From: an uncultured Gammaproteobacteria bacterium
Lineage (GTDB): Bacteria; Pseudomonadota; Gammaproteobacteria; Steroidobacterales; UBA11654
Reading direction: 5' to 3'
Length of the DNA stretch: 64,000 nt
Assembly: GCA_902595845.1 (NCBI GenBank)
Contig: CACJRN010000008.1
Coordinates: forward strand, 2,153 to 66,152
This document shows positions 9,911-27,802 of the stretch, piece by piece. Made by a program: the position numbers and the translations under genes. Under the pieces are notes generated by a model. It was not told the DNA's origin. It saw only the letters and a program-made list of their open reading frames with translations, and made no database searches. The first letter of the stretch is position 1. Each line of letters begins with the position of its first letter.

Positions 9911-9941
9911 GGTTACTCCTAACTTTTATATTAAATTTTCA

Positions 9942-11342: not shown

Positions 11343-12121
11343 TCAAGCGCTGCTTTGATGCCTTCTTTTTTGAGAATATCGTAAAACTCTGTTTTCTCAT
11401 CGTAATCGGTTGTCTCAAGCAGCATGTTCGCCTCTGATGCATCATCGAGTGCAGATCTCATGCCGCTGATTTCCATGGTTTTATTGATGGCTTTTTTGGT
11501 GATCGCTACAGACATCATGTCATTGGCTGCAATGGTTTCAGCGAATTCAATGCCTGTTGACTCAAGATTTTCGAGGTCAACGACTCGATTGATAAGGCCC
11601 ATCTCATAAATCCTTTGGGCAGGTATGCGTTTGTCTGCACAAAGCAATATTTCCTTGGCCAGTTTGGGTCCTGTTAACCAGGGTAAATTTAGCACCACGA
11701 TTCCGCTGGCTATGGATACTTCTGGCTCTCCAAACAGTGCACAACTTGAGGCAACGGTCAGATCACAACTCAAAGCCAACTCCATGGCTCCACCAAGACA
11801 GTATCCTTGAACACAAGCAATGGTTGGTTTGGGTGAATCCCAAAAACGCATGATCGTATCAAAGTCATTTTGCAGAGCAGCACGAATGTCCTCGTCTTTG
11901 TCTGATGACCAAACTTCATCGTCCAGATCAAATCCTGCTGAAAAAGATTTACCATTGGCTTTAACCACAATCGCTCGAATGGAATGATCTTCCTCTGCTT
12001 GATCCATTGCTGCATTCATCTCAGCCATCATGGCTGTATCGATTGCATTGAGCTTATCTGGCCTATTTAAAGTCAGCAGTGCAACAGGTCCATTGACCTC
12101 ATATGTGAGTGATTTACTCAC
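11306..12121 (-). CDS. enoyl-CoA hydratase/isomerase (crotonase) family protein
   Basis: 271 aa with crotonase motifs (LTLNRPDKLNA, KSFSAGFDL, GYCLGGAMELAL, FGEPEV). Confidence 0.85.
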   Translation of the reverse strand: MSKSLTYEVNGPVALLTLNRPDKLNAIDTAMMAEMNAAMDQAEEDHSIRAIVVKANGKSFSAGFDLDDEVWSSDKDEDIRAALQNDFDTIMRFWDSPKPTIACVQGYCLGGAMELALSCDLTVASSCALFGEPEVSIASGIVVLNLPWLTGPKLAKEILLCADKRIPAQRIYEMGLINRVVDLENLESTGIEFAETIAANDMMSVAITKKAINKTMEISGMRSALDDASEANMLLETTDYDEKTEFYDILKKEGIKAALEWRRSLVFGKGD

Positions 12122-12127
12122 AGATAT

Positions 12128-13648
12128 TTACCCGAGGTTATACCAAATCGATTTGCTTTGTGTGTATCCAAGCACTGACTCAAAGCATGAATCTTTGGTA
12201 TTGCCCGATTGCTTGTATCCACCAAACTCAAAGGTCATATCGCCAACATCGTAGCAGTTGACATAAACCATGCCTGACTCAATGGCTTTCGCCATGTTAT
12301 GAGCTCGACTGACATTGCTCGTCCAGACTGATGCGCAAAGACCATAGATTGTGTCATTGGCCATTTCGATGGCTTCTTCCTCAGAATCAAACGGAATAAT
12401 GGAAGCGACCGGTCCAAAGATCTCTTCACGACCAATGGTCATGTCATTGTTCACATCTGCAAACATGGTTGGTTCAACGAAACATCCAGACTCAAGTCCT
12501 GTTGGAATGTTTCCACCAAATTTGAGTTTCGCACCTTCATTTTTTCCTGATTCAATGAAGCCCAATACTCTTTTTTGAGCTTGTGCTGACATCAATGGAC
12601 CCATGTTTGTTTCTGGATCCAATGGATCACCAGGTGTATATGCACCTTGGCCTTCTGCAATGAATTGATCAACGAAATCAGCATAAATTGCTCTTTCAAC
12701 ATAGATCCTAGATCCTGCATTACAGACTTCGCCCATATTTGCATAGATTGAATCATAGGCTGTAGAGACAGCGAGTTCCATATCAGGTAAATCAGCGAAG
12801 TAAATCATGGGTGATTTCCCACCAGTCTCAAGGCTGACTTTTTTCATATTGGACTGACCGGCATATTGTAAAAGAAGTTTTCCAACTTCGGTTGATCCAG
12901 TGAATCCGATCTTCGAGACATCTTGATGGAGCGCCAAAGATTGTCCGGCCTCTTCACCATGTCCCGTGACCACATTGAATACCCCTGGAGGTCCACCTGC
13001 TTCGACAAAAAGCTCTGCCATTTTTATACACGAGTGAGGCGAATGCTCATCTGGTTTAAGAACAATTGAATTCCCTGCAGCCAATGCTGGAGCAATTTTC
13101 CAAACACCCATGAGAAGCGGATAATTCCATGGAGAAATCAATCCAACCACACCATATGGCTCTCTAACAGAAAGGTTCAGTGCTTTTTCATGTGTATTGG
13201 CAACTTTTCCATACATCTTATCGATACACTCTGCCATGAATCGAATGTTCACAGCTGAAGCTGGAACATCAACATTCAAACAATCGCTGATCGGCTTACC
13301 CATATTCATAGAATCCATGAGGGCAAGTTCAGCTGTATTTGCCTGAAGAAGATCGGCAAACTTCATCATGATTCCCATCCTTTTCCTGGGCGCCATCTTC
13401 CTCCAAGTCTTTGCTTTGAAGCTTTCTTTTGCTGCGGCAACGGCCTTATCTATATCTTTTTCATTTCCTGCTGCACATGTTCCACAAGCCTCGTTGGTTG
13501 CAGGATTGATGACTTCTATCTTTCCGCCATCTGCTGCATCAACATATTCACCATTAATGAAACATCTTCCTTCGAAGATACTATCGGCATCGCCCGCCAT
13601 CTTGGCCCAATCATCTTTAGACAATGCTTTTGCGCTTCTCGCATCCAT
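12128..13648 (-). CDS. NAD(P)-dependent aldehyde dehydrogenase
   Basis: 506 aa with LETGGKSP, catalytic Cys in GEVCNAGSR, EEIFGPV, and FTGSTEVG. Confidence 0.9.
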   Translation of the reverse strand: MDARSAKALSKDDWAKMAGDADSIFEGRCFINGEYVDAADGGKIEVINPATNEACGTCAAGNEKDIDKAVAAAKESFKAKTWRKMAPRKRMGIMMKFADLLQANTAELALMDSMNMGKPISDCLNVDVPASAVNIRFMAECIDKMYGKVANTHEKALNLSVREPYGVVGLISPWNYPLLMGVWKIAPALAAGNSIVLKPDEHSPHSCIKMAELFVEAGGPPGVFNVVTGHGEEAGQSLALHQDVSKIGFTGSTEVGKLLLQYAGQSNMKKVSLETGGKSPMIYFADLPDMELAVSTAYDSIYANMGEVCNAGSRIYVERAIYADFVDQFIAEGQGAYTPGDPLDPETNMGPLMSAQAQKRVLGFIESGKNEGAKLKFGGNIPTGLESGCFVEPTMFADVNNDMTIGREEIFGPVASIIPFDSEEEAIEMANDTIYGLCASVWTSNVSRAHNMAKAIESGMVYVNCYDVGDMTFEFGGYKQSGNTKDSCFESVLGYTQSKSIWYNLG

Positions 13649-13668: not shown

Positions 13669-15756
13669 TTACTTTTGCTGATGCAAAGATATCAATGCAT
13701 CAACCGCTATACAAATATCGTTTCCTAATATTACGGGATTTAAATCAATTTCACATATCTGATTGCTCAACTTCAACGCAATCAAAGAGAACCTTGATGC
13801 AAAATCCGCAAATGCATCCAAATCAGCTGGTTCTGATCCGCGATAACCATCGAGCAATGTTTTCATTTTGAGTGATCCCAGCGCTTCCTTCGCAGCCTCT
13901 TTGGAAAAAGGAGGCATCAGGGTAACCGCATCATTCATTGCCTCAGCGTAGTAACCACCAAAACCAATTGTCACCATGGGGCCGAGTTGCTCATCTGTGG
14001 TCATGCCAATGATCATCTCAACTCCCTCAGATTCAATCATCCTTGCAAGCAAGGCATCGCCTGGCAGATTTTTCTGAAGCTCATTGTATGCACTGCTCAA
14101 TTTTTCTTCTGAATCGATGTTTAGGTAAACTCCACTCAACTCAGATTTATGGAAGACATCTTCAACGGCAGTTTTTAAGACCAAAGGAAAACCCATGTCC
14201 TTTGCTGATGACAATAATTCTTCTTCATTGGTGATGACATTGCTTTGATTGGTATTTAAGCCCAAATCAAAAAACATATTGAGCGCCTGTGCTTCACTCA
14301 CAAACTCACTTTTAGAGAGTTCATCTTGGTATTTTTTCAACTTATCAGAGTTGAGATCAGTATCGATGACATCTTCGTCCTTTATGAAATCTCTATACTG
14401 ATGAAGGCATCGAACACCTGCAAGAAATGAATGCATGCCATCCAATACTGGCATTCCTTTATTTGTGGCCTCAACTGCCAAAGGATGAATGCCTGTGCCT
14501 TGCCTATTTGAAACAAGGAATACTGGCTTACCAGTACGATCATTTGCCTGCTTCATATACTCATCAATGTATTCCTGATGTATCAGACCCAATGGCCCTC
14601 TATCCATGACGATTGCAGCCATAGAAGCATTTGGATCATCGAGCATTTCTGTGATGCTATCAGCCATGATTTGATCGGCGTCTCCCAATCCTTTGCCCCA
14701 TGCATCAAGAGGATTAACTGGGGGCAAACCAGGATCGAGAATCTCTTTAAGTTTTTGAGTGGTGCTATCCTCAAGCTTTGCAAATTCAACTCCTTGTTGA
14801 TCGGCAATATCAATGATGAGTTGCCTCTCTCCTCCGGAGTCATGAATGGAGACCATATTTCCATCTGCCAATTCAAAGGGTTGATCAAACATGATGAGAG
14901 TCGTGGCAAGTTCATCCATGTCTGCAACCCTTTGAATGCCATATTTTTTGAACAGTGCATTGTAGTAATCATCCACACCAGCCAAACCACCTGAGTGAGA
15001 AACTGTGAGCTCTGCAGACCGCTCGGTCCTGCCTGTCTTTAGAACGATGATTGGAATTTTTTTCTGTTTTGCTAGCTCAAATGCTTGGATCATTTTTTCC
15101 GGCTTTCGAATGGTTTCAAGAAACATACCAACCACAGTTGTGCTCTCTTGATGAAGAATATAATCAAGGTAATCTTCCGCACCAACGGTCAGCTCAGATC
15201 CAGATGAAACAGAAAGGTTGAGATTGATCCTTTCTTCACAATCAATGATCCCAGCAACCCCTGAACCCGATTGACTGATGATGCATACTCCTCCGGGTTC
15301 ATGATTCGGTCTAGAGAAGTGACCATTGACCCAAACACCTTTTTCAATATGAAAAAACCCCATTCCATTGGCGCCGCATAAGAGAATGTCAGCTGCTTTT
15401 AGTTTTGCCTGTAAACGATCTTTTAAATATGGCTTCTCATCATCATCTAAATAAAGCATCGACATGATTGACATGGCCTTCACGCCAGCCTCAATGGCAG
15501 CATCTACCACTCCTTCAATTCTTTCATCTGATACAGCAAAAATTGCATGCTCAACTTTCTCTGGCAGAGATTCAAAGTCGGGATAGCATGGCACACCAAA
15601 TGCCTCTTCGTTTTTTGGATGCAGTCCATATAACTTGCCTTTATACCCCCCGTGCTGAAGGTTTTTGATGATTCGACTCCCCATCCCGCCAGAGGTCGTT
15701 GCACCAACAACAACAATGCTTTCTGGGTTTAACAGTGAATCTAGGCGGTGCGGCAT
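13669..15756 (-). CDS. ADP-forming acyl-CoA synthetase (acetate--CoA ligase family, fused alpha/beta)
   Basis: 695 aa. N-terminal CoA-binding Rossmann (SIVVVGATTSGG), succinyl-CoA-synthetase-like middle domains, and a C-terminal ATP-grasp-like region. Confidence 0.8.
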   Translation of the reverse strand: MPHRLDSLLNPESIVVVGATTSGGMGSRIIKNLQHGGYKGKLYGLHPKNEEAFGVPCYPDFESLPEKVEHAIFAVSDERIEGVVDAAIEAGVKAMSIMSMLYLDDDEKPYLKDRLQAKLKAADILLCGANGMGFFHIEKGVWVNGHFSRPNHEPGGVCIISQSGSGVAGIIDCEERINLNLSVSSGSELTVGAEDYLDYILHQESTTVVGMFLETIRKPEKMIQAFELAKQKKIPIIVLKTGRTERSAELTVSHSGGLAGVDDYYNALFKKYGIQRVADMDELATTLIMFDQPFELADGNMVSIHDSGGERQLIIDIADQQGVEFAKLEDSTTQKLKEILDPGLPPVNPLDAWGKGLGDADQIMADSITEMLDDPNASMAAIVMDRGPLGLIHQEYIDEYMKQANDRTGKPVFLVSNRQGTGIHPLAVEATNKGMPVLDGMHSFLAGVRCLHQYRDFIKDEDVIDTDLNSDKLKKYQDELSKSEFVSEAQALNMFFDLGLNTNQSNVITNEEELLSSAKDMGFPLVLKTAVEDVFHKSELSGVYLNIDSEEKLSSAYNELQKNLPGDALLARMIESEGVEMIIGMTTDEQLGPMVTIGFGGYYAEAMNDAVTLMPPFSKEAAKEALGSLKMKTLLDGYRGSEPADLDAFADFASRFSLIALKLSNQICEIDLNPVILGNDICIAVDALISLHQQK

Positions 15757-15762: not shown

Positions 15763-16953
15763 TTAATAAAGTTCAGCTGGGGTGGTTCTTCTTCTTTCTG
15801 GATCAAAGAAAGGCTTGGTCACAATGGTTGCTTCCTCCATGACTCTATTCCATTCCAGATCTTTCTGATAGTAGATCTCAGCAATGATCTTATCCTTGTC
15901 TTTATTCCAAGGATCATGCAATGACGCATATGCGATATTTGCTTTTGCACTGGGAGAGAACATCGCTGAGGTCACTGTTCCAATTTTTTTATTGGCTTGA
16001 TTGTAAAGATAAGATCCATGTGCTGGTTTGTTACCCTTAATGTTTAGTTTTACAAATGTATATCTCGAGCCTTTTCTCTTCTCCTCAATCAGTGCTTCTC
16101 TTCCATTAAAGACTGGCTTAGATAAATCCACCAACCAAGATAACCCCAATTCAAATGGTGATCTAGTTGAGCCGGGCCTAATGGCATCTTCTGCAACCAT
16201 AAAGTCCTGGCCTGGAACCAGCAATCCTGCTTCTATTCTGACTAAATCCAGTGCATCCAATCCAAAAGGTTTGATGCCATATATTTCACCTTTTTCAAAC
16301 AATGCATCCCAGAAATCCAAGGCTACATCATTGGCCATACAAGCTTCATAACCAAGATCACCGGAAAAACCTGTTCTCGATATAATGATCTCTCGACCGC
16401 GGAAATCATAGTGCTTGATATCAAATGGTTTCAAAAACTCAATGCCTTCAAATCCAATGGCCTTCAGGATGCTACAAGAGGTCGGTCCTTGAATTCCAAG
16501 GCATGCTATGTCATCTGTAATTTCTTCTATTTTGACATCAAATCCAATTGCAGAATTCTCCAAGTTATCCAATTGTCTTTCAACGCATAAAAGCCAATAT
16601 TCATTCTCTCTAATGTGAAAGACAGTTCCGTCGTCGATCACCTGGCCTTCTTCATCACACCAAACCACATAACCCACTCTTCCGATTCCAATCTTATTCA
16701 TGTCTCGAGTAAAGAAACGATTCACAAACTCAGCAGCATCAGGTCCTGTTATTTTCTGTTTGACCATCGGCGTGTAATCAATCACCCCAGTGGTGTTTCT
16801 GACAGCAAAATACTCCAGATCTGTTCGAAAGTAATTTGTTGGAACGGTGTAATCCTTCCAGCGGGACCATTCATTGAGTATATTCAATTCTGATGTTCTC
16901 TCATGAAACGGTGTTTTATAAACTGATGTTTTGTAATGATCTTGTCGCAACAT
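15763..16953 (-). CDS. GcvT-family (aminomethyltransferase / folate-binding) protein
   Basis: Start trimmed from 16989 to ATG 16953 (MLRQDHYKTSVYKTPFHERT), with AGGAG 10 nt upstream and 1 nt after the upstream stop. GcvT-like length and pattern (TGFSGDLGYE, RIEAGL). Confidence 0.8.
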   Translation of the reverse strand: MLRQDHYKTSVYKTPFHERTSELNILNEWSRWKDYTVPTNYFRTDLEYFAVRNTTGVIDYTPMVKQKITGPDAAEFVNRFFTRDMNKIGIGRVGYVVWCDEEGQVIDDGTVFHIRENEYWLLCVERQLDNLENSAIGFDVKIEEITDDIACLGIQGPTSCSILKAIGFEGIEFLKPFDIKHYDFRGREIIISRTGFSGDLGYEACMANDVALDFWDALFEKGEIYGIKPFGLDALDLVRIEAGLLVPGQDFMVAEDAIRPGSTRSPFELGLSWLVDLSKPVFNGREALIEEKRKGSRYTFVKLNIKGNKPAHGSYLYNQANKKIGTVTSAMFSPSAKANIAYASLHDPWNKDKDKIIAEIYYQKDLEWNRVMEEATIVTKPFFDPERRRTTPAELY

Positions 16954-16954
16954 C

Positions 16955-18523
16955 CTAGGACTCCTTGCTGATGATTTCATTTGCTGCATTTCTTCCGGCC
17001 AAGCCCATTAATCCTCCACCGGGGTGTGAGCCTGCTCCACATAAATAAAGCGATTCAATCGGAGTTTTGTACTGAGCCATTTTTGGTATTGGTCTCAGCA
17101 TCAAGAATTGGTCAAACGTCAATTCACCATGATGCCATTGCCCTCCGGTTATGCCGTATTCATCTTCTATATCTTTAGGGGATAAGAGTTCAGCATGAAC
17201 AATTAATCCTTTGATTCCAGGCGCCATCTCTTCCAATTGATTGAGGCAGTTTTCAAGCACCACAGCATTGGACTGATCCCAGCCTTCTTTCAGCTCATAT
17301 GCCGTGTTATTGACAACGGCAGAGAGGACATGATGCCCTTTAGGTGCAAGTGTTTTGTCATGGATTGACGGAATGATGATTTCCATGGGTAGTTGGTCTG
17401 AGCACTCGCCATATTTGGTATGATCGTGAGCCAATTCGAGATATTTCATGCTGGGAGCATTGATGATTCGATGTCCCAAGTCTTCTGGCTCGACTCCCTT
17501 GAATTTTGGCAATCCACTTAATGCCAAGTGAAGTTTTGAGGTATTGCCTCTCATTCTTATGTTGTTCACTTTATGCACATAGTGGGATTCTAGATTCTTT
17601 GGTCCAACCAAACACATGAAAGTGCTCCTTGGGTCAATTCCAGAAACAACGATGTCAGCATTCACTTTCTCGCCAGATTCTAAAATGAGGCCATTAATTT
17701 TGTTCTCTTCATTTAAATCAATCTGTTTGACTGGTGAATTTGTGTGAATCTTGACTCCAGCCGATTCAGCAGCTTTTTGTAGCGCATTTGAGTAGGAACT
17801 CATTCCACCCTCAGGGATGGCATAGCTGCCTTGAACTCCATTCAGATCTCCAGTGAGTTGGTGTAAAAAAGTAATCGCACTGTTATTGGTCCTTGGCCCC
17901 AGTCGGTTCCCCAATAGCGCATCCAAAGCAATGGAGCCCTTCATGTGTTCGTGATCTGTAAATTCATTTAAAATATCATGAATATTTACGGCGATATATT
18001 TCAGCATCTGTCGCATGGATTTTTTGCCCATACTTCTCAGGTTCCAACCCAAACTCATCAAACGCGTCATGTCTTTGGTTTCATCCGATCCCAATCTTGG
18101 CGGTGCCGTCTGATAAGATTTTTTGAAAAAGCCTGCAAGCTTTTTCATCGCTTGTCTGAATTCCTTATATTCCGCTTGCTCTTTCATGGTGATGTCATCA
18201 CCAGTGACACTGTCGTCATCAAAAATCAAAGCGTTTCCTTTAGGATTGATGGATATTGTTTTCAAACCACTTGCAGCAAATGCGAGCCCATGCTTGTTCA
18301 GGTTTAATGATTTATGGATTTTGGAATCGGTTTGATGCAAAAGATGAGCTACGCCTGGGACCCTGTACCCATCGATTAATTCTTTGGTTGAAGCCATGCC
18401 GCCAACCTCTGAACGTGACTCATAAAGCTCCACATTAAAACCCGCCTTTGCCAAATAAGCCGCACTCACCAGGCTGTTATGTCCGCCTCCAATAATGGCT
18501 ATGTTTTTATTCTTTCTAGTCAT
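16955..18523 (-). CDS. FAD-dependent oxidoreductase, CrtI/phytoene-desaturase-like (PYROXD2-like), paralogue B
   Basis: Start trimmed from 18586 to ATG 18523 (MTRKNKNIAIIGGGHNSLVSAAYLAKAG, dinucleotide fold). C-terminal LYLCGAGSHPGGGLMG. 8-nt overlap with paralogue A. Confidence 0.75.
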   Translation of the reverse strand: MTRKNKNIAIIGGGHNSLVSAAYLAKAGFNVELYESRSEVGGMASTKELIDGYRVPGVAHLLHQTDSKIHKSLNLNKHGLAFAASGLKTISINPKGNALIFDDDSVTGDDITMKEQAEYKEFRQAMKKLAGFFKKSYQTAPPRLGSDETKDMTRLMSLGWNLRSMGKKSMRQMLKYIAVNIHDILNEFTDHEHMKGSIALDALLGNRLGPRTNNSAITFLHQLTGDLNGVQGSYAIPEGGMSSYSNALQKAAESAGVKIHTNSPVKQIDLNEENKINGLILESGEKVNADIVVSGIDPRSTFMCLVGPKNLESHYVHKVNNIRMRGNTSKLHLALSGLPKFKGVEPEDLGHRIINAPSMKYLELAHDHTKYGECSDQLPMEIIIPSIHDKTLAPKGHHVLSAVVNNTAYELKEGWDQSNAVVLENCLNQLEEMAPGIKGLIVHAELLSPKDIEDEYGITGGQWHHGELTFDQFLMLRPIPKMAQYKTPIESLYLCGAGSHPGGGLMGLAGRNAANEIISKES

Positions 18524-20132
18524 CGTTTTCAGCCTCAGGAACAATATTTTTTCGTTTAAGATCGTACAACATTTCTCTGGCAGCATTGGCTCCTGGAGCT
18601 GCCATCACACCTCCACCTGGGTGGGTGCTTGACCCGCACATGTAAAAGCCCTTAACGGGTCCTCTAAATTGTGCATATCCTGGAAAAGGTCTATTGAAGA
18701 ACATTTGATCCATGGTCAACTCACCTTGGAAGATATTCCCCTCGGTTAATCCGACTTCATTCTCTATGTCTTGAGGCGTTCGGATCTCTGCATGGACGAT
18801 CAAGTCTTTAAAATTAGGGCTGTATTGACCGATTTGATCAATGACGGTTTTACCAAAGCCTTCTCTGTCTTTGTCTGTCCACTCACCCGTTGCCAATTTT
18901 GGCGGCGCGTATTGAACAAACACAGACATATAGTGTTTCCCTGGTGGTGCCATTGTTGGGTCTGTCATTGTTGGTATGAGCGTATCGCAGTATGGATCTT
19001 GTGACCATCGACCGTTCTTCCAGTCATCGTAGGCTCTTTCAATCCTTTCAAGTGAATCAATGAAATGCATATCGGCATAAATCAGAGGATTGTCTTTGCC
19101 CATGGCTGGAAAATCTGGCAACCCATCCAAAGCAATATTTAGCTTTCCAGATGATCCATTGAATTTATAATTATCAACTTGCTTCAGTAGTTTTTCATTC
19201 AGATCTTCTGGATTAAATAAGTCTTGATAGGTTCTGCGAGCATCTAGGTTAGAGACCACATTTTTTGCATGATATTCGTCTCCATTTGCCAATACCACCC
19301 CAGTTGCTTTGCCATTCTTAACTTGGATTTGAGTGACTTCTGCCTCGGTTAGGATCTCACCATCATATTCCTGAAGAGCACCTGCTAGTGCTTTTGATAC
19401 TGAGCCCATTCCACCTCTTGCGAATCCCCAAGAGCCAATGCTTCCATCCACTTCTCCCATGTAGTGGTGCAGAAGAACGTAAGCCGTTCCAGGAGAGTAT
19501 GGTCCGAGAGCAGTACCAATGATACCGCTTCCAGATAAGGCTGCTTTGACTATGTCCGATTCAAAATATTCCTCGAGATACTCTGCAGCACTCATGGTAT
19601 AGAAACGGATCGTCTCATATATGGTCTGTTCACCCAAACCGTATAGTCGTTTAAACAACCAAACCAGTTCATTTAAATCTTTTGGTCTGAAAGAAGTTGG
19701 ATCTGGAGGAGTTCTTAATAAAAGTGGCTTAATGAAACGACACTGCTTAGATACGTCTCTTCCGAAACGAACATATGCATCGGCATCTTTCTTGGAAAAA
19801 CGACCAATTTCTCTTCGTTGCAAGTCATGATCAGAATATCCGCCAAAGATATTCCCATCTTCCATAAAGGTAACGCTGCCTCCATAAGCAATGACTTGAA
19901 GTCCATGCTTTTGTAAGTTGAGATCACGGTATATTTCAGGTCTCAATAAGCTGCAAACATAAGAGCAGTTAGAATATACCCAACCGTCATGTAACTCTCT
20001 GCTGACTGCTGCTCCACCTATGTAATCATTTTTTTCTAAAACCAAAACCTTTAAGCCGGATTTGGCGAGATAGGCTGCATTGGTCAATCCGTTATGGCCA
20101 GCGCCTATTACTATTGCATCATAGTTTTTCAA
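18516..20132 (-). CDS. FAD-dependent oxidoreductase, CrtI/phytoene-desaturase-like (PYROXD2-like), paralogue A
   Basis: 538 aa. TTG start in a TTGA overlap with the aminotransferase stop. N-terminus YDAIVIGAGHNGLTNAAYLAKSG and C-terminus FYMCGSSTHPGGGVMA. Confidence 0.8.
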   Translation of the reverse strand: MKNYDAIVIGAGHNGLTNAAYLAKSGLKVLVLEKNDYIGGAAVSRELHDGWVYSNCSYVCSLLRPEIYRDLNLQKHGLQVIAYGGSVTFMEDGNIFGGYSDHDLQRREIGRFSKKDADAYVRFGRDVSKQCRFIKPLLLRTPPDPTSFRPKDLNELVWLFKRLYGLGEQTIYETIRFYTMSAAEYLEEYFESDIVKAALSGSGIIGTALGPYSPGTAYVLLHHYMGEVDGSIGSWGFARGGMGSVSKALAGALQEYDGEILTEAEVTQIQVKNGKATGVVLANGDEYHAKNVVSNLDARRTYQDLFNPEDLNEKLLKQVDNYKFNGSSGKLNIALDGLPDFPAMGKDNPLIYADMHFIDSLERIERAYDDWKNGRWSQDPYCDTLIPTMTDPTMAPPGKHYMSVFVQYAPPKLATGEWTDKDREGFGKTVIDQIGQYSPNFKDLIVHAEIRTPQDIENEVGLTEGNIFQGELTMDQMFFNRPFPGYAQFRGPVKGFYMCGSSTHPGGGVMAAPGANAAREMLYDLKRKNIVPEAENDD

Positions 20133-21445
20133 GACTCATCTCCAAGTGTTCTTTCTAGTGCTGATTCAAATGCATCAAGCGTTGGTTGCATCGCATCCTT
20201 CGCATGAGCCTCACAAATGAACCAGGGCTCCCTAGGATCAAATTCGCATAATACCCCATCTTCGAGCATCTCTTCAGCAAGTTTTTCATAAAAAGGGTAG
20301 TTGGAATATCTAAAATCTCTTGCGTTAGTTGGGGGATTTTCTGAGAAAAAGAGTCCAGACATCGAAGGGTGCCCTGTAAAAGAATGTGCGATATCTCTTT
20401 TGCTCAATATATCGCTGATCCCTTGTTTTAAGTTCTCACCATAGTTCGCGACGGTTTCTAATGCATCGGTGTTTTGCAAAATCTCCAACGTCTTATTTGC
20501 TGCAGAAATTGCCACTGAATGCGCAGTGAATGTTCCGCCATGGAGGACTCCTCCATATTTGATATGTCTCATATACTCTTCCTTTCCTGCCAATGCAGCA
20601 ATGGGATAACCGTTGGCAATTGATTTTGCGAATGTGCATAGATCTGCTTCAACGCCATAGAGTTCCTGAACGCCTCCCTTGGCCACACGGAAACCAGTTT
20701 TCACCTCGTCTATGATCAGGATGATGTCGTATTTTGTACAGAGCTCTCGAACCGCTTGCATGTACTCTTGTGTTGCTGAAATTGAGCAACAATTGCCCAG
20801 AATAGGCTCAATCATCAGCGTTCCAATTTCATTGTGTTTCTTTTTCAAAAGATCTTCTAACGCATCCGCATCATTAAAAGGAACGAGTGAAACCAAGTCT
20901 TTAGTAATACCTGGAACTCCAGCACTCGATGATGTGATTTCTGGTTCCCCTTTCTCTGGATCCCATTCATCAATATCTATATCCCAAAGTGCTGCATCCC
21001 AAACTCCGTGATATCCACCCTCAACCATGATGTATCCATCCCGCTTACTAACCGCTCGTCCAACGCGTAGTGCCGCCATCACTGCTTCTGTGCCTGAGTT
21101 GGAGTATCGAACCAATTCGGCTGAAGGCACCATGGAAGAAATCTTCTTTGCGACTTCATATTCCAATTCTGTTGCCAGTGCAAAAACACCGCCGATCTCC
21201 ATGCCCTCTCTTGCAGCTTGATCGACCCTTTCATCGGCATAACCAAGAATGTATGGACCATATGCTAGACGATAATCAATGTATTCATTGTCATCCAAAT
21301 CCCATAATCTGCATCCCTTTGCACGCTTGATATAGATGGTGTCATCATCACCCCAATATCTGAAATTAGAAGTGACGCCTAGTGGGAGTTTGTTGAGTGC
21401 TTTTTTAAAATGTTCGTTGCTTTTTTTTAATGATCTTTTACTCAT
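20129..21445 (-). CDS. class-III (GSA-aminomutase-like) pyridoxal-phosphate aminotransferase
   Basis: 438 aa. PLP-lysine context is IIDEVKTGFR. Also SNSGTEA and the fold-type-I class-III pattern. Confidence 0.85.
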   Translation of the reverse strand: MSKRSLKKSNEHFKKALNKLPLGVTSNFRYWGDDDTIYIKRAKGCRLWDLDDNEYIDYRLAYGPYILGYADERVDQAAREGMEIGGVFALATELEYEVAKKISSMVPSAELVRYSNSGTEAVMAALRVGRAVSKRDGYIMVEGGYHGVWDAALWDIDIDEWDPEKGEPEITSSSAGVPGITKDLVSLVPFNDADALEDLLKKKHNEIGTLMIEPILGNCCSISATQEYMQAVRELCTKYDIILIIDEVKTGFRVAKGGVQELYGVEADLCTFAKSIANGYPIAALAGKEEYMRHIKYGGVLHGGTFTAHSVAISAANKTLEILQNTDALETVANYGENLKQGISDILSKRDIAHSFTGHPSMSGLFFSENPPTNARDFRYSNYPFYEKLAEEMLEDGVLCEFDPREPWFICEAHAKDAMQPTLDAFESALERTLGDES

Positions 21446-21501: not shown

Positions 21502-21545
21502 CAGAGATTAGTCTCTGGTGTAGATAATGTTGAATCGAGAATCGA
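21502..21545. promoter_or_regulatory. candidate operator region in the divergent promoter of the amine supercluster
   Basis: Perfect inverted repeat CAGAGA-ttag-TCTCTG (21502-21517), followed by tandem GAATCGA GAATCGA (21532-21545). Both lie in the 162-nt gap between the divergent first genes. Confidence 0.3.
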
Positions 21546-21607
21546 GTAAATACATCATATGGTTAAATATTATCCAAATAATTATTAGTTTCAAAGGAAA
21601 ATCGTCA

Positions 21608-22534
21608 ATGACACAAATTAGCAAAACATCAGACATCATTGATGCAGTTGAAACAATCAGAGTTCAGGCCAATGGAATTGACTTTGAAGTCGATACTCAA
21701 GGTGAGGGAGACAAAATGATTCTATGTCTTCATGGATGGCCAGAGCATAGCATTACCTGGCGTTTTCAAATGTCTCATTTTGCAAATCTGGGTTATCGAG
21801 TTTGGGCTCCTAATCTTCGAGGTTATGGAAATAGTGATGCCCCAAAAGGTATGAAAAATTATCAGATTGAGGTCCTGATGAGAGACGTCTCAGAAATGAT
21901 TGAAGCATCCGGTGCGAAAGAAATCATTCTTCTGTCACATGATTGGGGTGCGATGATTGCTTGGCACTTTGCAATGCGCTACCCAAATAAAATTGAGCGC
22001 CTGATCATTTGCAATGTCCCACACCCAGGGCCTTTTCTTAGTAGCATGAAGACTGTCGAACAATTGATGAGATCTTGGTATACATTATTTTTTCAATTGC
22101 CCTGGATTCCAGAGTTTTTAACTAGAAATTTTCGCCCGGGAAAATTGATCCGATCTGGTGCTGCAAGAAAAAGTAATTATTCAGATGAAGTTGTCAGTCT
22201 CTATGATGAAAATGGCGCAAGAAAAGAAAATCGAACTGCAATGTTTAATTATTATCGTGCATTTATGAGAGGTGGTGGACTCTATAGGCAATGGAAATTG
22301 GGTTTCCCAATGATTGAAACTCCGACCCTGATGCTATGGGGTGAAAAAGATATTGCTCTATCAATAAGAAGCACATTGGGTACAGAAAAATATGCTTCAA
22401 ATTTGACGCTTCGATATTTCAAAGGTATTTCTCATCATATTCAGCAAGACGCACCAGAGGAAGTGAATCAGATGATAGAAGCCTTTTTGAAAGATGAAGA
22501 TGTTCCTGAATATTTAGATATAAAAAATGGATGA
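21608..22534 (+). CDS. alpha/beta hydrolase, epoxide-hydrolase/dehalogenase-like
   Basis: Start trimmed from 21527 to ATG 21608 (MTQISK). Motif HGWPE, nucleophile-Asp elbow SHDWGA, and a C-terminal His (ISHHIQQD). Confidence 0.8.
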   Translation: MTQISKTSDIIDAVETIRVQANGIDFEVDTQGEGDKMILCLHGWPEHSITWRFQMSHFANLGYRVWAPNLRGYGNSDAPKGMKNYQIEVLMRDVSEMIEASGAKEIILLSHDWGAMIAWHFAMRYPNKIERLIICNVPHPGPFLSSMKTVEQLMRSWYTLFFQLPWIPEFLTRNFRPGKLIRSGAARKSNYSDEVVSLYDENGARKENRTAMFNYYRAFMRGGGLYRQWKLGFPMIETPTLMLWGEKDIALSIRSTLGTEKYASNLTLRYFKGISHHIQQDAPEEVNQMIEAFLKDEDVPEYLDIKNG

Positions 22535-22604: not shown

Positions 22605-23768
22605 ATGCATATTAATTTACCAGATGATGTTAAAGAGTGGATAAAAACTGCTGAGAGCTTCCTTGAAGAAACAAAGCCTTGGGAAGTTGAGGCAGAAATG
22701 AATAGTGGCAAGGTCCCAGAAGAAATTGATAGCAAGCATCGGCAGATGGCAATTGATCTTGGATTATCAAGCATGGACATGCCAAAAAGCATTGGCGGAA
22801 AAGAATTATCTAATCTTCAACAAGTCGCTGTTTGGGAAGTCTTGGGCAGGAGTACAAATGCCCTGACATGGTGTTTCTCAGAACCTCAGAGATGGATGCT
22901 TGAGGCATGCAATGAAGAGCAAATTAAAAAATACATTCTGCCGATCATGGATGGAAGTCGACACGAATGCTATGCGATCACGGAATCTGAATCAGGTTCA
23001 GAGCTTGATGTTTCAGCCACTGCAAAAAAAGTGGATGGTGGATATATTGTCAATGGGGAGAAATGGTATGTAACTGGTGCCAATCATGCCGACTTCTTTT
23101 TTATCCAAGCAGTCATCCAAGATGGAGATGATGTAATTGGTGATGCTTTGTTTTTCTTGGATATGGATCAAGAAGGAATTGAGCATGTTCGAACACCGCT
23201 TTTCTCTCACACATTCGATAGCCATCATCCTATTTATAAATTCCATGATGTTTTCATACCCGACGAGAACTTAATCGGATCAGAAGAAGATGGAATGAGT
23301 TATTCGCTGGCATGGTTCAGAAGGGAACGCTTGATGATCGCTGCTAGATGCTGCGGTGCAGCTGCAAGATTAATAGAAGAAGCAACTGAATTTGCTCAAG
23401 CCAGAAAAGTTAAAGGCGGACTTTTATCAGAACAACAAGCCATTCAGTTCATGCTTGCTGACAGTGTCACTGAACTTTGGGCAACAAGACTGATGCTTTA
23501 TGAAACAGCTATGGCGCATGATCGTGAAGACGATGTCAAAGCACTTCATTATCGATGCTCTGCAGTCAAGCTTTATGCTTCAGAAATGGCCAATAAAGTT
23601 GCAGATAGAGTTGTGCAAATCTTTGGAGGCAGAGGCTACATGAGAGAATTTGCTGCCGAAAGATTTTATAGAGAGCTTAGAGTAGATCGAATCTGGGAAG
23701 GGACTTCAGAAGTTCAGCGTCTCATTATCGCTGGAGGCCTTCTTAAGAAAGGTCTTAAGGATCTCTAA
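22605..23768 (+). CDS. acyl-CoA dehydrogenase
   Basis: 387 aa with the ACAD pattern (CYAITESESGSE, GEKWYVTGA, QIFGGRGY) and a catalytic-base context IWEGTSEVQR. Confidence 0.85.
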   Translation: MHINLPDDVKEWIKTAESFLEETKPWEVEAEMNSGKVPEEIDSKHRQMAIDLGLSSMDMPKSIGGKELSNLQQVAVWEVLGRSTNALTWCFSEPQRWMLEACNEEQIKKYILPIMDGSRHECYAITESESGSELDVSATAKKVDGGYIVNGEKWYVTGANHADFFFIQAVIQDGDDVIGDALFFLDMDQEGIEHVRTPLFSHTFDSHHPIYKFHDVFIPDENLIGSEEDGMSYSLAWFRRERLMIAARCCGAAARLIEEATEFAQARKVKGGLLSEQQAIQFMLADSVTELWATRLMLYETAMAHDREDDVKALHYRCSAVKLYASEMANKVADRVVQIFGGRGYMREFAAERFYRELRVDRIWEGTSEVQRLIIAGGLLKKGLKDL

Positions 23769-23781: not shown

Positions 23782-24666
23782 TTGAAAAATAAACCAGCCA
23801 TTCTTGATTGGGTCTCTATCATTGGACTTTCAGCTGTTTGGAGCAGCGCATTTGTTTTCATTAAACAAACAACGCCGATCTTTGGGGCAGTTGGTTTGGT
23901 CTTTATGCGACTATTCATTTCGGCAGTTATTCTTAGTCTGTTATTTATAAGACCAAAGCATATTAAAACCATCCGGGATAATATTATTCCAATTTTTATA
24001 GTCGGCGCTACAAATGTAACCATACCGTTTATGTTTTTTGCACTATCTGCCTATTACATCAATGCGGGATCAATGGCGGTCGTGAATGGAAGCACGCCAT
24101 TGTTTGCCTTTCTTTTCTCAATTCTATTATTGGGGTTCACATTCAGATGGATCCAATTTTTAGGTATTCTGATGGGCATTATTGGATTGATCATTTTTGT
24201 TGGTGTTGATGCATTGGAATTTCATCCAATGGCAAATCTCTCTGCTGTCATGGGTGCAATGATGTATGGCCTCTCAATGGTTTATATCTTTAAGTTAAAT
24301 TTCAAAGACACCAAGCTCATGGCAGCAGCAAGTATGGTTGCTGCAACTATTTGCATAGCTCCTCTATTGATTTTTTTCCCAATCCCTTGGGATATAGTTA
24401 CGACTGAATCGATGATCAGTGTTATTTATTTAGCTACTTTTTGTACTGGGTTGGCTTATATCCCCTACTTTATTTTGATTAGAAATGTTGGGCCTGTAAG
24501 CACATCAATTATTGCGATGCTAGTACCGGTATTCGGAATGCTATGGGCTTATGTTTTGCTCGAAGAAAAAATAACATTATTGATGTCCGTCGGTTGCTTG
24601 TTTATTGTTATAGGTATCTTGATGACCAATGTAATTGGAAATAATAACGATAAAAAATCTGCATAA
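23782..24666 (+). CDS. DMT-superfamily (EamA) transporter
   Basis: 294 aa with about 10 hydrophobic helices arranged as two EamA-like halves. TTG start. Confidence 0.7.
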   Translation: MKNKPAILDWVSIIGLSAVWSSAFVFIKQTTPIFGAVGLVFMRLFISAVILSLLFIRPKHIKTIRDNIIPIFIVGATNVTIPFMFFALSAYYINAGSMAVVNGSTPLFAFLFSILLLGFTFRWIQFLGILMGIIGLIIFVGVDALEFHPMANLSAVMGAMMYGLSMVYIFKLNFKDTKLMAAASMVAATICIAPLLIFFPIPWDIVTTESMISVIYLATFCTGLAYIPYFILIRNVGPVSTSIIAMLVPVFGMLWAYVLLEEKITLLMSVGCLFIVIGILMTNVIGNNNDKKSA

Positions 24667-24678
24667 ACCAATTTGATT

Positions 24679-26876: not shown

Positions 26877-27802
26877 TGTCTGGTTTACTTGTAAATACAA
26901 ATAATTCAATCAGAGAAAATCTCTGGAGATACTTTATTGTTGCCATCCCTTATATTTGGCTACTGCTTTTCTTTCTGGCTCCCTTTGTCATTGTCTTCAA
27001 AATCAGTCTGGCTGATCCAATCATTGCTCAACCTCCATTTACTCCATTGTTCAATGAAAGCTCGGATGGTGGATTTTCAATTTATACGACATTTGATAAC
27101 TTCTTGTATTTATTTCAAGATTCGCTCTACTTCGTCACTTATCTTAATTCTGTAAAACTTGCCTTTATTGCAACTTTTTTTACTTTGCTGATTGGATATC
27201 CAATAGCATATGGCATAGCAAGATCACCACAGCCCACTCGAAACATTCTTCTATTACTGGTTGTTATACCTTTCTGGATTTCTTTTCTTTTAAGGGTTTA
27301 TTCTTGGATGGGAATTCTTAAAACAAATGGATTGATAAATGGGTTTTTGCTTTGGTTGGGCGTCATCGATCAACCCCTCGAGCTTCTATATACCGATACC
27401 GCTGTATACATTGGTATGGTTTATTCATACCTCCCGTATATGATACTTCCGCTTTATGCGAACCTGGTGAAGCTCGACGTGAGGCTGCTTGAAGCAGCTT
27501 CAGACTTGGGTGCGAAAAAATGGCAAGGGTTTTTGGATGTCACTTTGCCATTGTCAATGCCAGGAATCATTGCAGGGTGCTTATTGGTATTCATACCAGC
27601 GATCGGTGAATATGTTATACCTGCTCTTCTTGGCGGTGCAGATACATTAATGATTGGAAGGGTTCTCTTTGATGAATTTTTCCTCAATAGAGATTGGCCT
27701 GTTGCATCGGCAGTTGCGATTGTTCTTCTTTTATTACTGGTACTGCCAATTGTTTATTTTCAAAAGAAACAAGCACAAGAAACATCGGAGGCAACAGCGT
27801 AA
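26876..27802 (+). CDS. polyamine-type ABC transporter permease (PotB/PotH-like)
   Basis: 308 aa, GTG start overlapping the upstream stop. EAA loop LLEAASDLGAKKWQGFLDVTLP. Confidence 0.85.
   Translation: MSGLLVNTNNSIRENLWRYFIVAIPYIWLLLFFLAPFVIVFKISLADPIIAQPPFTPLFNESSDGGFSIYTTFDNFLYLFQDSLYFVTYLNSVKLAFIATFFTLLIGYPIAYGIARSPQPTRNILLLLVVIPFWISFLLRVYSWMGILKTNGLINGFLLWLGVIDQPLELLYTDTAVYIGMVYSYLPYMILPLYANLVKLDVRLLEAASDLGAKKWQGFLDVTLPLSMPGIIAGCLLVFIPAIGEYVIPALLGGADTLMIGRVLFDEFFLNRDWPVASAVAIVLLLLLVLPIVYFQKKQAQETSEATA

Follow-up and report, generated by a model that had tools for sequence, protein, structure and literature searches.

A conserved trio of two PYROXD2-like flavoproteins and a stand-alone GcvT-family protein points to an undescribed amine-demethylating enzyme

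Two flavoproteins of the PYROXD2/CrtI type and a stand-alone GcvT-family protein form a conserved trio in amine-catabolism clusters, which points to an undescribed amine-demethylating enzyme. Neither a curated family model nor a description in the literature searched was found for it. The trio was analysed in a stretch of 64,000 nucleotides (the window) from an uncultured gammaproteobacterium. Its more specific assignment as a split, tetrahydrofolate (THF)-coupled oxidative N-demethylase for a methylated polyamine-like amine is given about an even chance of being right. The minus strand carries four genes in the following order:

20129..21445, minus strand, class-III (GSA-aminomutase/GntE-like) aminotransferase, first of the coupled block (Pfam Aminotran_3, 215 bits)
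18516..20132, minus strand, flavoprotein A, PYROXD2-like with a CrtI fold, proposed catalytic subunit (538 aa)
16955..18523, minus strand, flavoprotein B, an ancient divergent paralogue of A (522 aa)
15763..16953, minus strand, predicted stand-alone GcvT-family folate-binding protein, proposed C1 acceptor (396 aa)

The four genes are translationally coupled through overlaps of 4 and 8 nt and then a gap of 1 nt. The aminotransferase and flavoprotein A share the 4-nt junction TTGA, the latter using a TTG start, and the stop of flavoprotein A and the start of flavoprotein B are both contained in the 8-nt overlap ATGACTAG. The stop codon TAG of flavoprotein B (16957-16955) is followed by a single G and the ATG of the GcvT-like gene at 16953, with AAGGAG located 8 nt 5' of this ATG. 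The start of flavoprotein B was set at the ATG at 18523, although the mechanical open reading frame reaches 18586, because the homologues are called at 522 aa. The sequence-only reading had described this layout as two overlapping paralogous flavoproteins of about 520-540 aa with a shared C-terminal motif, followed after 1 nt by a GcvT-family protein with its own ribosome-binding site, and each of these points was borne out.

Both flavoproteins belong to the PF01593 amine-oxidase superfamily with the CrtI fold. Flavoprotein A (N-terminus MKNYDAIVIGAGHNGL, C-terminus CGSSTHPGGG) contains the Pfam domains Amino_oxidase, DAO and the Rossmann domain NAD_binding_8, and flavoprotein B (N-terminus MTRKNKNIAIIGGGHNSL, C-terminus CGAGSHPGGG) contains Amino_oxidase and NAD_binding_8. 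With 33% identity (291 bits, E 9e-97), the two are true paralogues. Flavoprotein A is closer to mouse PYROXD2 (38% identity, 368 bits, full length) than to its neighbour B, which is 30% identical to PYROXD2 and forms its own clade with 100% bootstrap support rather than a sister group of A. In genome pairs from distant Gammaproteobacteria where A retains 64-74% identity, B retains only 40-48%, and its FAD-type motifs are intact, including GxGxx[GS], the Glu at the end of beta-2 and HPGGG.

The best NCBIfam names for flavoprotein A are those of carotenoid enzymes, and the best PDB folds for its AF2 model (pLDDT 68.8, medium confidence only) are the carotenoid desaturases 4REP and 4DGK, followed by MAO, NicA2 and putrescine oxidase. 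These matches would suit a pair of CrtI/CrtO-type desaturases or ketolases beside an unrelated GcvT gene. However, the scores lie far below the cut-offs (CrtO, 298 versus 1000 bits; crtI_fam, 136 versus 238 bits). The Pfam scan of almost all larger open reading frames of the window revealed no phytoene synthase, GGPP synthase or lycopene cyclase, in agreement with the earlier claim that carotenoid genes are lacking, and none occurs in the related loci, in all of which the pair is tied to the GcvT-like gene and to amine-catabolic genes. The carotenoid role is thus effectively refuted, with a negligible probability.

Every related locus that extends far enough upstream (at least 3.3 kb) keeps the order A-B-GcvT, a recurrence that places it far above chance. 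The loci are spread over Woeseiaceae, Steroidobacteraceae, Halieaceae, Lysobacterales and one Gemmatimonadota, and also over cultured Alphaproteobacteria (Rhizobiaceae and Paracoccaceae). The linkage of the GcvT-like gene to the flavoprotein pair holds across bacterial classes and as the GcvT-like identity falls from 95% to 42%. In six loci (L046, L060, L068, L071, L083 and L085) the trio survives the replacement of all other cluster genes.

The GcvT-like protein matches Pfam GCV_T (185.7 bits) and GCV_T_C (41.6 bits), and all of its NCBIfam scores are below cut-off, the best being the C-terminal half of trimethylamine N-oxide (TMAO) demethylase with 242 bits. Its AF2 model (pLDDT 72.5) aligned with T-proteins at target-normalised TM scores of 0.76-0.78. 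Phylogenetic placement, proposed in the sequence-only reading as a check, set the GcvT-like proteins in a separate clade with 100% bootstrap support, outside the true GcvT clade (98%) and apart from the single DmdA-like sequence tested (29% identity). This placement and the conserved linkage to the flavoprotein pair, the two computational outcomes by which that reading could have been refuted, thus both favour it. The nearest relative is the C-terminal domain of the TMAO demethylase Tdm (32-34% identity), with a bootstrap of only 57% for the sister grouping. This Tdm domain binds THF and makes methylene-THF from channelled formaldehyde (PMC13619132). The THF-type motifs are intact: the clade shows no variation at DD107/108 (part of DDGT), E203 and R239, all of which it shares with GcvT, Tdm and SoxA, whereas ND replaces DD in the DmdA-like protein. 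The PDB entries 3A8K (D97N, T-protein) and 3GSI (D552A, dimethylglycine oxidase, DMGO) show that this Asp was picked as a mutational target in both enzymes.

The same residues bear on a direct methyl transfer of the DmdA/LigM type, in which the GcvT-like protein would move a sulfonium or other onium methyl group (for instance of DMSP-amine, or of DMSP derived from it) to THF without oxidation, and the flavoprotein pair would carry out an unrelated redox step. The CoA ligase, acyl-CoA dehydrogenase and crotonase of the cluster represent the reaction types of DmdB, DmdC and DmdD; a DmdA-like gene of Phaeobacter adjoins a crotonase and an acyl-CoA synthetase, a Fuscovulum cluster contains a DMSP-lyase-family gene, and DmdA (3TFH) is among the structural neighbours of the GcvT-like model. 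Nevertheless, the GcvT-like protein scored 144 bits on the DmdA model with a cut-off of 410, its low identity and separate tree position set it apart from the DmdA-like sequence, and its DD motif is the methylene-forming one. Direct transfer also leaves unexplained the co-translation of the flavoproteins and their co-inheritance in loci devoid of the CoA enzymes, and is considered unlikely.

The remaining genes of the cluster lie on both sides of the coupled block:

9942..11342, minus strand, glutamine-synthetase (GS)-like ligase, gamma-glutamyl-amine synthetase type (Pfam Gln-synt_C, 294 bits)
11306..12121, minus strand, enoyl-CoA hydratase/crotonase (Pfam ECH_1)
12128..13648, minus strand, PuuC-like aldehyde dehydrogenase (Pfam Aldedh, 544 bits)
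13669..15756, minus strand, NDP-forming acyl-CoA synthetase, 695 aa (Pfam CoA_binding, Succ_CoA_lig, ATP-grasp_5)
21527..22534, plus strand, divergently transcribed alpha/beta hydrolase (Pfam Abhydrolase_1)
22605..23768, plus strand, acyl-CoA dehydrogenase (Acyl-CoA_dh domains of the 85% identical homologue in locus L001)
23782..24666, plus strand, EamA-family membrane transporter (EamA domains of the L001 homologue)
24673..28611, plus strand, whole PotF/SpuE-type polyamine ABC transporter (similarity to SpuE and PotF)
24673-25782, plus strand, its binding protein (315 bits to Pseudomonas aeruginosa SpuE, 294 to PotF)
25779-26876, plus strand, its ATPase
26876-27802 and 27694-28611, plus strand, its permeases

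The aminotransferase, whose best NCBIfam match is GntE (448 bits, below the cut-off of 525), is present in 56 of the 70 related loci that reach far enough upstream, and 63 of 82 loci have the acyl-CoA synthetase, likened below NCBIfam cut-offs to 3-hydroxypropionate-, 4-hydroxybutyrate- and acetate-CoA ligases, immediately 3' of the GcvT-like gene. Among 58 loci, the aldehyde dehydrogenase (PuuC, 538 bits versus a cut-off of 850) and the crotonase each occur in 40, and the acyl-CoA dehydrogenase and the polyamine transporter each in 43; the alpha/beta hydrolase and the EamA transporter are kept solely in the window's own clade. The binding protein aligns with PotF and SpuE at YNW-x-DY, WAGD and W-x-D, which we take to be their ligand-contacting residues, and by its sequence looks like an ordinary putrescine/spermidine receptor. 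Genes for a BetI-like TetR regulator (40/58 loci) and GbcA-like Rieske oxygenases (28/45), both absent from the window's own clade, and for a 678-aa Fe-S/OYE-type flavoenzyme in the alphaproteobacterial clusters give the trio a context that resembles the stepwise betaine demethylation by GbcA, DgcA and Sox. The polyamine-type transporter, the BetI-like repressor and the GbcA-like oxygenases support methylated-amine catabolism.

The GS-like ligase (41/58 loci) scored nearly equally on the type III GS model (191 bits), which presumably covers GmaS-type ligases, and the gamma-glutamylputrescine synthetase model (174 bits). In the Cellvibrionales locus L071, it is the sole catabolic neighbour of the trio, the minimal set being a BetI-like TetR, A, B, the GcvT-like protein and the ligase. 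Such a set might constitute a new methylamine-handling module in place of N-methylglutamate synthase and dehydrogenase, where the ligase would convert methylamine released upstream into gamma-glutamylmethylamide (or another gamma-glutamyl-N-methylamide), which the trio would oxidatively demethylate to glutamine and methylene-THF. The alphaproteobacterial trio clusters, however, have an aminotransferase and no nearby GS-like gene, the ligase scores far below both family cut-offs, and the translationally coupled partner is the aminotransferase instead of the ligase; this module is judged improbable.

In the preferred oxidative N-demethylase, flavoprotein A, aided by or complexed with B, would use FAD to oxidise an N-methyl C-N bond in a polyamine-like amine or in an amino-acyl-CoA derived from it, yielding an iminium or formaldehyde. 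With THF bound, the GcvT-like protein would trap this carbon as 5,10-methylene-THF, the role that its homologous domains play in TMAO demethylase, sarcosine oxidase and dimethylglycine oxidase. The co-translated aminotransferase would then remove the demethylated primary amine, the carbon skeleton would pass to the aldehyde dehydrogenase, the NDP-forming CoA ligase, the acyl-CoA dehydrogenase and the crotonase, and the GS-like ligase may gamma-glutamylate the free amino group or the released amine. We infer the complex of A and B (perhaps with the GcvT-like protein), the N-methyl oxidation, the THF dependence, the electron acceptor and the substrate; neither ETF nor ETF-QO is encoded near the trio. 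Against this assignment, the binding protein is of the ordinary putrescine/spermidine type, and since unmethylated polyamines contain no C1 unit, a methylated substrate is postulated rather than observed. The sequence-only interpretation is partly supported. It had called the architecture undescribed, which stands for the PYROXD2/CrtI-type partner and not for the separate GcvT-like acceptor, because the known dmmDABC operon already combines a non-DAO N-demethylase with DmmD, a GcvT-domain protein that stands alone.

Most single-copy relatives of A have no GcvT gene next to them and adjoin genes for acyl-CoA ligases, acyl-CoA dehydrogenases and amidases, so the chemistry of the flavoprotein family may be broader or different, and their adjacency to acyl-CoA ligases suggests that a CoA thioester, and not the free amine as imported, could be the substrate. 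Classical CrtI-family chemistry concerns C-C bonds, not C-N bonds. The pair might be conceived as a polyamine or amino-acyl-CoA oxidase/desaturase that attacks spermidine-type substrates at a secondary amine or at a C-C bond, with the GcvT-like protein serving, for example, as scaffold or in aldehyde handling. PF01593 is common to polyamine oxidases, CrtI-fold enzymes desaturate C-C bonds, single-copy members are found directly 3' of acyl-CoA ligases with no GcvT gene, and the binding protein is SpuE-like down to a Trp that we assume to determine the spermidine preference of SpuE. Yet all characterised catalytic GcvT-family members among the matches listed transfer C1 units to or from folate, the invariant folate and catalytic residues ill suit a mere scaffold, and the BetI-like and GbcA-like neighbours indicate N-methyl chemistry, leaving this oxidase/desaturase only a slim chance.

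The PYROXD2 locus is associated with the levels of N6-methyl-lysine, N6,N6-dimethyl-lysine and trimethylamine. The link to methylated amines raised in the sequence-only reading is thereby upheld, together with the homology of flavoprotein A, and the bacterial trio offers a testable function for the human disease gene PYROXD2.

The trio occupies a block on the minus strand of the window, made up of two flavoproteins and a stand-alone folate-family protein.

15763 to 16953, minus strand, GcvT-like protein
16955 to 18523, minus strand, flavoprotein B, paralogue of A
18516 to 20132, minus strand, flavoprotein A, PYROXD2-like

Direct reading of the junctions bore out the gene arrangement claimed in the sequence-only reading. 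The TGA stop of the class-III aminotransferase gene (20129 to 21445) overlaps the apparent TTG start of A (TTGA, 4 nt; window 20130-20132), the stop of A and the start of B form ATGACTAG with an 8-nt overlap, and the ATG of the GcvT-like gene follows the TAG of B after a single G, with AAGGAG located 8 nt upstream. These starts give proteins of 538, 522 and 396 aa, the same lengths as called for homologues in public assemblies. In the related locus L001, the homologue of A is called with an 8-nt overlap to the aminotransferase gene, compared with 4 nt in the window.

Linkage of the three genes was followed in one genome per GTDB species and in alphaproteobacterial replicons. The genome scan found 567 relatives, the best 80 of which come from Woeseiaceae, Steroidobacteraceae, Lysobacterales, Halieaceae/Cellvibrionales and one Gemmatimonadota, while the window itself is 95-100% identical to MAG UBA11654 (Woeseiaceae). 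The same 15-gene cluster recurs in the closest public relatives (Tara contigs and a marine gammaproteobacterial MAG; GcvT-like protein 78% identical), a 57%-identical relative retains the aminotransferase, A, B, the GcvT-like protein, CoA ligase, crotonase, GS-like ligase, acyl-CoA dehydrogenase and transporter, and thousands of metagenomic proteins match, Tara Oceans samples included. When all loci were searched with the window proteins (tblastn), 82 of 86 had A and then B immediately ahead of the GcvT-like gene; in three of the four exceptions the upstream sequence is shorter than 800 nt and the fourth, L041, has frameshifted A and B, so the trio is present in every locus with enough upstream DNA, which speaks for the proposal of the sequence-only reading. 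A lower count of 61/76, obtained by merging HSPs, was an artefact of cross-matching paralogues, since A- and B-like sequence fills the 3.2 kb upstream in 15/15 flagged loci.

L041 was rejected as a locus devoid of A and B. Its aminotransferase, A and B (5459-9970) lie in many frame-shifted pieces between mostly intact flanking genes, which is probably a long-read assembly error, with pseudogenisation as the alternative.

Among cultured Alphaproteobacteria, the trio is carried on replicons of Rhizobium sp. SL42, Shinella zoogloeoides ATCC 19623, Ensifer adhaerens, Parasedimentitalea marina and Fuscovulum ytuae, with A 58-62% and the GcvT-like protein 42-46% identical to those of the window. The order of the trio stays intact in six loci in which all other neighbours change (L046, L060, L068, L071, L083 and L085), indicating that the three genes are a functional unit.

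The GcvT-like protein belongs to the GcvT-fold folate-binding superfamily, as judged from its domains (GCV_T 185.7 and GCV_T_C 41.6 bits, above the Pfam gathering scores), its three-domain fold and its Asp/Glu/Arg residues. The best NCBIfam match was the C-terminal half of TMAO demethylase (Tdm; 242 bits against a cut-off of 1100, covering model positions 372-761 only, with no DUF1989 in the 396 aa), followed by GcvT (PRK00389 216.5, cut-off 300; TIGR00528 173.8, cut-off 235.85), SoxA of the heterotetrameric sarcosine oxidase (154.8, cut-off 1164) and DmdA (143.9, cut-off 410), all of them below cut-off. An AF2 model of medium confidence (pLDDT 72.5) aligned with the T-proteins 1WOO and 1YX2 at target-normalised TM values of 0.76-0.78, and also matched the folate domains of sarcosine oxidase, DMGDH, DMGO and DmdA.

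A neighbour-joining tree (500 bootstrap replicates, support as bipartition counts) was built from 13 trio-type proteins and annotated references from plasmid records, namely three GcvTs, two Tdm-like proteins, one SoxA, one DMGDH-like and one DmdA-like protein. The 13 trio-type proteins were monophyletic with 100% bootstrap, the GcvT clade excluded them with 98%, and their nearest relative, weakly (57%), was the Tdm domain. Identity to the window protein is at least 42% within the clade, 32-34% for Tdm, 29% for the DmdA-like protein and 24-28% for GcvT, SoxA and the DMGDH-like protein. D107/D108 of the window protein align with the conserved Asp-Asp of the E. coli T-protein, one Asp of which (D97) is mutated in PDB 3A8K and has as its DMGO equivalent D552, mutated in 3GSI. 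This pair is invariant in the trio-type clade together with E203 (the Glu of SRTG(F/Y)(T/S)G(D/E)LGYE) and R239 (the Arg of R(I/L)E(A/T)G), whereas the DmdA-like protein has Asn-Asp in place of Asp-Asp.

An assignment as bona fide GcvT was rejected by the scores, by the 98% exclusion in the tree and by the 25-28% identity to the three annotated GcvTs; no gcvH or gcvP was found in the window or the related loci by Pfam scans and locus annotations. DmdA was likewise rejected on its score, on the 29% identity, on the lack of grouping and on DD versus ND, the comparison being with one DmdA-like reference identified by annotation. The clade of its own, the exclusion from the GcvT clade and the DD/ND difference thus leave the protein outside GcvT and away from the DmdA-like sequence, the two placements that would have spoken against the N-dealkylase proposal of the sequence-only reading. 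One rival explanation combines DmdA-like methyl transfer by the GcvT-like protein with an unrelated redox step by the flavoproteins; it is in keeping with the structural match to DmdA, and is given lower weight beside the Asp-Asp pair of the clade and the constancy of the trio.

The two flavoproteins proved to be paralogues, as had been claimed, with 33% identity and 291 bits, and the N- and C-terminal motifs described for them are both present. A and B contain an N-terminal Rossmann dinucleotide-binding domain (Pfam) and belong to the flavin amine oxidoreductase family PF01593 (61.3 and 65.7 bits, cut-off 19.8). The dinucleotide motif reads GxGxxG in A and GxGxx[GS] in B, each with a conserved Glu, from which FAD binding is predicted for both, and the HPGGG block is kept in both proteins. 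Their best curated NCBIfam names are the CrtO and CrtI families at a fraction of the cut-offs: A scores 136.3 with TIGR02734 (cut-off 238.1) and 298.0 with CrtO (cut-off 1000), and B 123.6 and 218.1, which places neither protein in CrtI or CrtO. No gene of the carotenoid pathway turned up when nearly all larger ORFs of the window were scanned with Pfam, in agreement with the initial claim, and a carotenoid desaturase or ketolase role was rejected on the scores and the missing crt genes.

The only solved relatives of A and B by sequence are CrtI (4DGK) and gamma-carotenoid desaturase (4REP). An AF2 model of A, of medium confidence (pLDDT 68.8), matched 4REP and 4DGK first, followed by monoamine oxidases, a nicotine oxidoreductase and putrescine oxidase. 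A has the fold of its best PDB matches (4REP, E 1e-23, query-normalised TM 0.71), but differs from them in the 18-21% identity, the missed family cut-offs and the absence of a carotenoid context. The family tree shows monophyletic A and B clades (100% each) without a sister relationship between them: A clusters with mammalian PYROXD2 and single-copy bacterial homologues, and B is the outlier. B diverges much faster (40-48% identity where A has 64-74%) and has lost several family-invariant residues. A is likely the catalytic subunit, and B may provide a further active site, take part in electron transfer or serve a structural purpose.

For the comparison with PYROXD2, only retrieved database sequences were used, the references being entries named PYROXD2 by NCBI/UniRef and 98% identical to the human sequence used as query. 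A aligns with mouse PYROXD2 from end to end (38% over 550 columns, 368 bits), a match exceeding that of A to B, and B aligns at 30% and 269 bits. The full-length homology and the conserved blocks common to A and PYROXD2 (YDA(I/V)VIGAGHNGL, SLLRP(E/Q)I, YVLLHH and HPGGGVM) place A in the PYROXD2 family; orthology is not supported, as PYROXD2 was the specific sister of the A clade with 1% bootstrap only. Human PYROXD2 is mitochondrial, and differs from A in that no B-type partner or dedicated GcvT-like partner was encountered for it in the material examined. The link of PYROXD2 to methylated-amine levels, which had been raised in the sequence-only reading, is confirmed by the literature: the locus is reproducibly associated with N6-methyl-lysine and N6,N6-dimethyl-lysine (PMC9730628), and with trimethylamine metabolism, with the precise protein function stated as unknown (PMC8777681).

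Single-copy PYROXD2-like members mostly have no GcvT neighbour and lie beside acyl-CoA ligases, acyl-CoA dehydrogenases and amidases. Two loci, L102 (6001-9638) and L103 (1347-8449), exemplify such genes with no GcvT gene beside them, their neighbours being acyl-CoA ligases, an acyl-CoA dehydrogenase, amidases, a PuuC-like dehydrogenase, an aminotransferase and an acetylpolyamine amidohydrolase; the acyl-CoA-ligase neighbours suggest that some family members may act on amino-acyl-CoA thioesters. A single-copy PYROXD2-like gene directly beside a GcvT gene was looked for in plasmids and found only in Shinella sumterensis (L099 3026-12164, plasmid NZ_CP132306.1), in the order crotonase, NDP-forming CoA ligase, 3-hydroxyacyl-CoA dehydrogenase, PYROXD2-like, GcvT, aldolase and BKACE. 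This GcvT is of a different lineage, with 35-36% identity to true GcvTs and 27% to the window protein, and the locus, a carnitine/butyrobetaine-like cluster of one species, may show that the two families became paired independently a second time.

The surroundings of the trio combine polyamine-type uptake with CoA-dependent enzymes, and their frequencies were counted only in loci with enough flank.

Genes accompanying the trio (loci with the gene/assessable loci)
Aminotransferase, 56/70
NDP-forming CoA ligase (window 13669 to 15756), 63/82
Aldehyde dehydrogenase, 40/58
Crotonase, 40/58
GS-like ligase (window 9942 to 11342), 41/58
Acyl-CoA dehydrogenase, 43/58
PotF-type binding protein (window transporter 24673 to 28611), 43/58
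BetI-like TetR, 40/58
GbcA-like Rieske oxygenase, 28/45

The binding protein of the window is closest to SpuE/SpuD of P. aeruginosa and PotF of E. coli and agrees with PotF and SpuE at the W-x-D-Y, WAGD and W-x-D motifs, which we take to be ligand-contacting residues in the PotF and SpuE structures. These residues look like ordinary polyamine binding, compatible with a ligand range that includes N-methylated amines or one that does not. A polyamine or acyl-CoA oxidase pair, accompanied by a GcvT-like protein with a non-C1 role, would suit this receptor, the PF01593 domain common to the pair and polyamine oxidases, and the acyl-CoA enzymes beside single-copy relatives; it is weighted below the split N-demethylase, to which the folate-site motif and the co-inheritance of the trio point.

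The GS-like ligase, the PuuC-like aldehyde dehydrogenase and the PotF/SpuE-type transporter recall the Puu/Pau gamma-glutamylation pathway, but the ligase and dehydrogenase fall short of its models (GGputSyn 174 versus 650; PuuC 538.5 versus 850), and the cluster differs in having no PuuB/PauB DAO-type oxidase and no PuuD amidase, with CoA-dependent enzymes and the trio in addition. A gamma-glutamylmethylamide module formed by the trio and the GS-like ligase would account for the frequent presence of this ligase; it too is given lower weight. The CoA ligase, acyl-CoA dehydrogenase and crotonase could strip a 3-carbon N-substituent, by analogy with the DmdB/C/D chemistry on methylmercaptopropionate.

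Related clusters add elements of methylated-amine metabolism. One BetI-like TetR scores 115.9 with the BetI model (cut-off 118), and the best model of the Rieske oxygenases is glycine-betaine monooxygenase (128-304 bits, under the cut-off); the window's own clade is free of both genes. Alphaproteobacterial clusters contribute a 678-aa Fe-S/OYE flavoenzyme, presumably related, in a broad sense, to DgcA and trimethylamine dehydrogenase, as well as a second omega-aminotransferase, an acetylpolyamine-amidohydrolase-type deacetylase and a BKACE enzyme. The Rieske, Fe-S flavoenzyme and Sox logic of glycine-betaine demethylation is thereby mirrored, here tied to a polyamine-type transporter and aminotransferases.

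Several further genes were observed around the trio. In the window, a carboxylesterase flanking the cluster (6300-7841, plus strand) recurs at 51-66% in L001-L003, L010, L012, L014 and L015, and a 203-aa predicted membrane protein (8866-9477, minus strand), which has no Pfam or NCBIfam match, recurs at 67-68% in L012 and L015. A GNAT acetyltransferase (7854-8354, plus strand) lies just past the GS-like gene; a GNAT gene also occurs in the Parasedimentitalea trio cluster, along with a gene of the histone-deacetylase family (acetylpolyamine amidohydrolase type), and together these hint at N-acetylated amine intermediates. A 666-aa TPR and sulfotransferase protein (28630-30630, plus strand) directly follows the last transporter gene and has homologues of 36-39% identity at most 8 kb from the trio in distant Steroidobacteraceae/Gammaproteobacteria (L058 ~12, L068 2098-4122, L083 ~2087), either by functional linkage or by coincidence. 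About 17 kb from the cluster (36565-40486), an SDR (36565-37386, minus strand), a VanA-type Rieske oxygenase (37364-38479, minus strand) and an acyl-CoA-dehydrogenase-like protein (39242-40486, plus strand) may represent another demethylase system, unlinked to the trio. Downstream of the cluster in L004 (17079-18947; also L005 and L006), a 622-aa call joining TetR_N/TetR_C_6 to Rieske/Ring_hydroxyl_A adjoins a DAO-family oxidase and an SNF-family transporter; the call represents either a genuine fusion of regulator and oxygenase or a merging of two genes. On the Rhizobium sp. SL42 plasmid (L087 4239-6913), a MocD/MocE/MocF-like set (fatty-acid-desaturase-family protein, MocE-type ferredoxin and FAD oxidoreductase) with an inositol dehydrogenase is found 5 kb upstream of the trio; this set is reminiscent of rhizopine catabolism and probably has nothing to do with the trio.

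In the proposed mechanism, A, together with B, would oxidise an N-CH3 group, the carbon would be taken up by the GcvT-like protein to give methylene-THF, and the primary amine would pass to the co-translated aminotransferase. Coupling and co-inheritance of the genes suggest such a split THF-coupled N-demethylase, as do the folate-site motif, the fold of the amine-oxidase superfamily, a setting among methylated-amine genes and the genetics of PYROXD2. Counting against it are the ordinary-looking polyamine receptor, the BetI- and Rieske-free clade of the window, the single-copy relatives that mostly stand without GcvT beside acyl-CoA enzymes and amidases, and the lack of an electron acceptor encoded in the cluster.

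The same logic, flavin-dependent N-methyl oxidation with THF capture by a GcvT fold, operates in SoxABDG, dimethylglycine oxidase/dehydrogenase and 4-methylaminobutyrate oxidase; SoxA, DMGDH and DMGO are structural neighbours of the GcvT-like model, and Sox also has two different Rossmann-type subunits alongside its folate module. The enzymes of this group differ in their DAO-family flavin subunit and in the fusion of the GcvT module to SoxA or the DAO domain, whereas the partners here are of the CrtI/PYROXD2 family; no sox genes were found in the trio cluster, equivalents of soxD and soxG included. To our knowledge, folate-capture oxidative N-demethylation employs only DAO-family flavoenzymes (sarcosine and dimethylglycine enzymes, MABO) or non-flavin partners (Tdm, Dmm). 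The C-terminal THF domain of Tdm has the DDGT(L/I)F motif in common with the GcvT-like protein and turns formaldehyde from N-demethylation into methylene-THF (PMC13619132), but it is fused to a Zn-containing, flavin-free DUF1989 core, whereas the protein here stands alone with two FAD-type enzymes as partners. DmmD of dmmDABC, likened to the GcvT-like protein by description only, is a GcvT-domain protein that stands alone, shares its operon with a non-DAO N-demethylase and is proposed to conjugate formaldehyde to THF (PMC5520151); its partners are DmmABC instead of CrtI-like flavoproteins.

THF-coupled N-demethylation being well known, and DmmD being a stand-alone precedent, the functional category is not new. 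The novelty lies in a catalytic family with the CrtI/PYROXD2 fold in place of DAO, in the obligate pairing of two paralogues and in a GcvT clade of its own; of the undescribed architecture claimed at the outset, the CrtI/PYROXD2-type partner pair therefore stands, while the separate GcvT-domain acceptor has its precedent in DmmD. No trio protein reaches any cut-off in NCBIfam (June 2026 release), public annotations are generic, and a full-text literature search, with most subscription papers outside it, returned no description of a CrtI/PYROXD2-like protein with a GcvT module. That the trio represents an unrecognised class of THF-coupled N-demethylase on the PYROXD2/CrtI fold is put forward tentatively, as a possibility that we rate somewhat below an even chance.

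Such an enzyme would add a new family to C1 and amine metabolism. Abundant pelagic and sediment bacteria carry the trio in clusters for polyamine uptake, which bears on the turnover of marine and soil dissolved organic nitrogen; if the reading is true, the trio would be the missing step for the use of N-methylated di- and polyamines by abundant Gamma- and Alphaproteobacteria of oceans, sediments and soils. Speculatively, one source of such amines might be diatom silica, through fragments of its N-methylated long-chain polyamines. Cultured carriers (S. zoogloeoides ATCC 19623, P. marina W43, F. ytuae YMD61 and Rhizobium sp. SL42) make direct testing possible. The trio also offers the first gene-neighbourhood-based hypothesis for PYROXD2, a human mitochondrial disease gene whose strong, replicated associations with methyl-lysines and trimethylamine are still without a biochemical explanation, and as a widespread module it makes this long-open function directly testable. 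If true, it would give a function to the whole PYROXD2 family, with human PYROXD2 as a mitochondrial oxidoreductase demethylating N-methyl amines such as N6-methyl-lysine.
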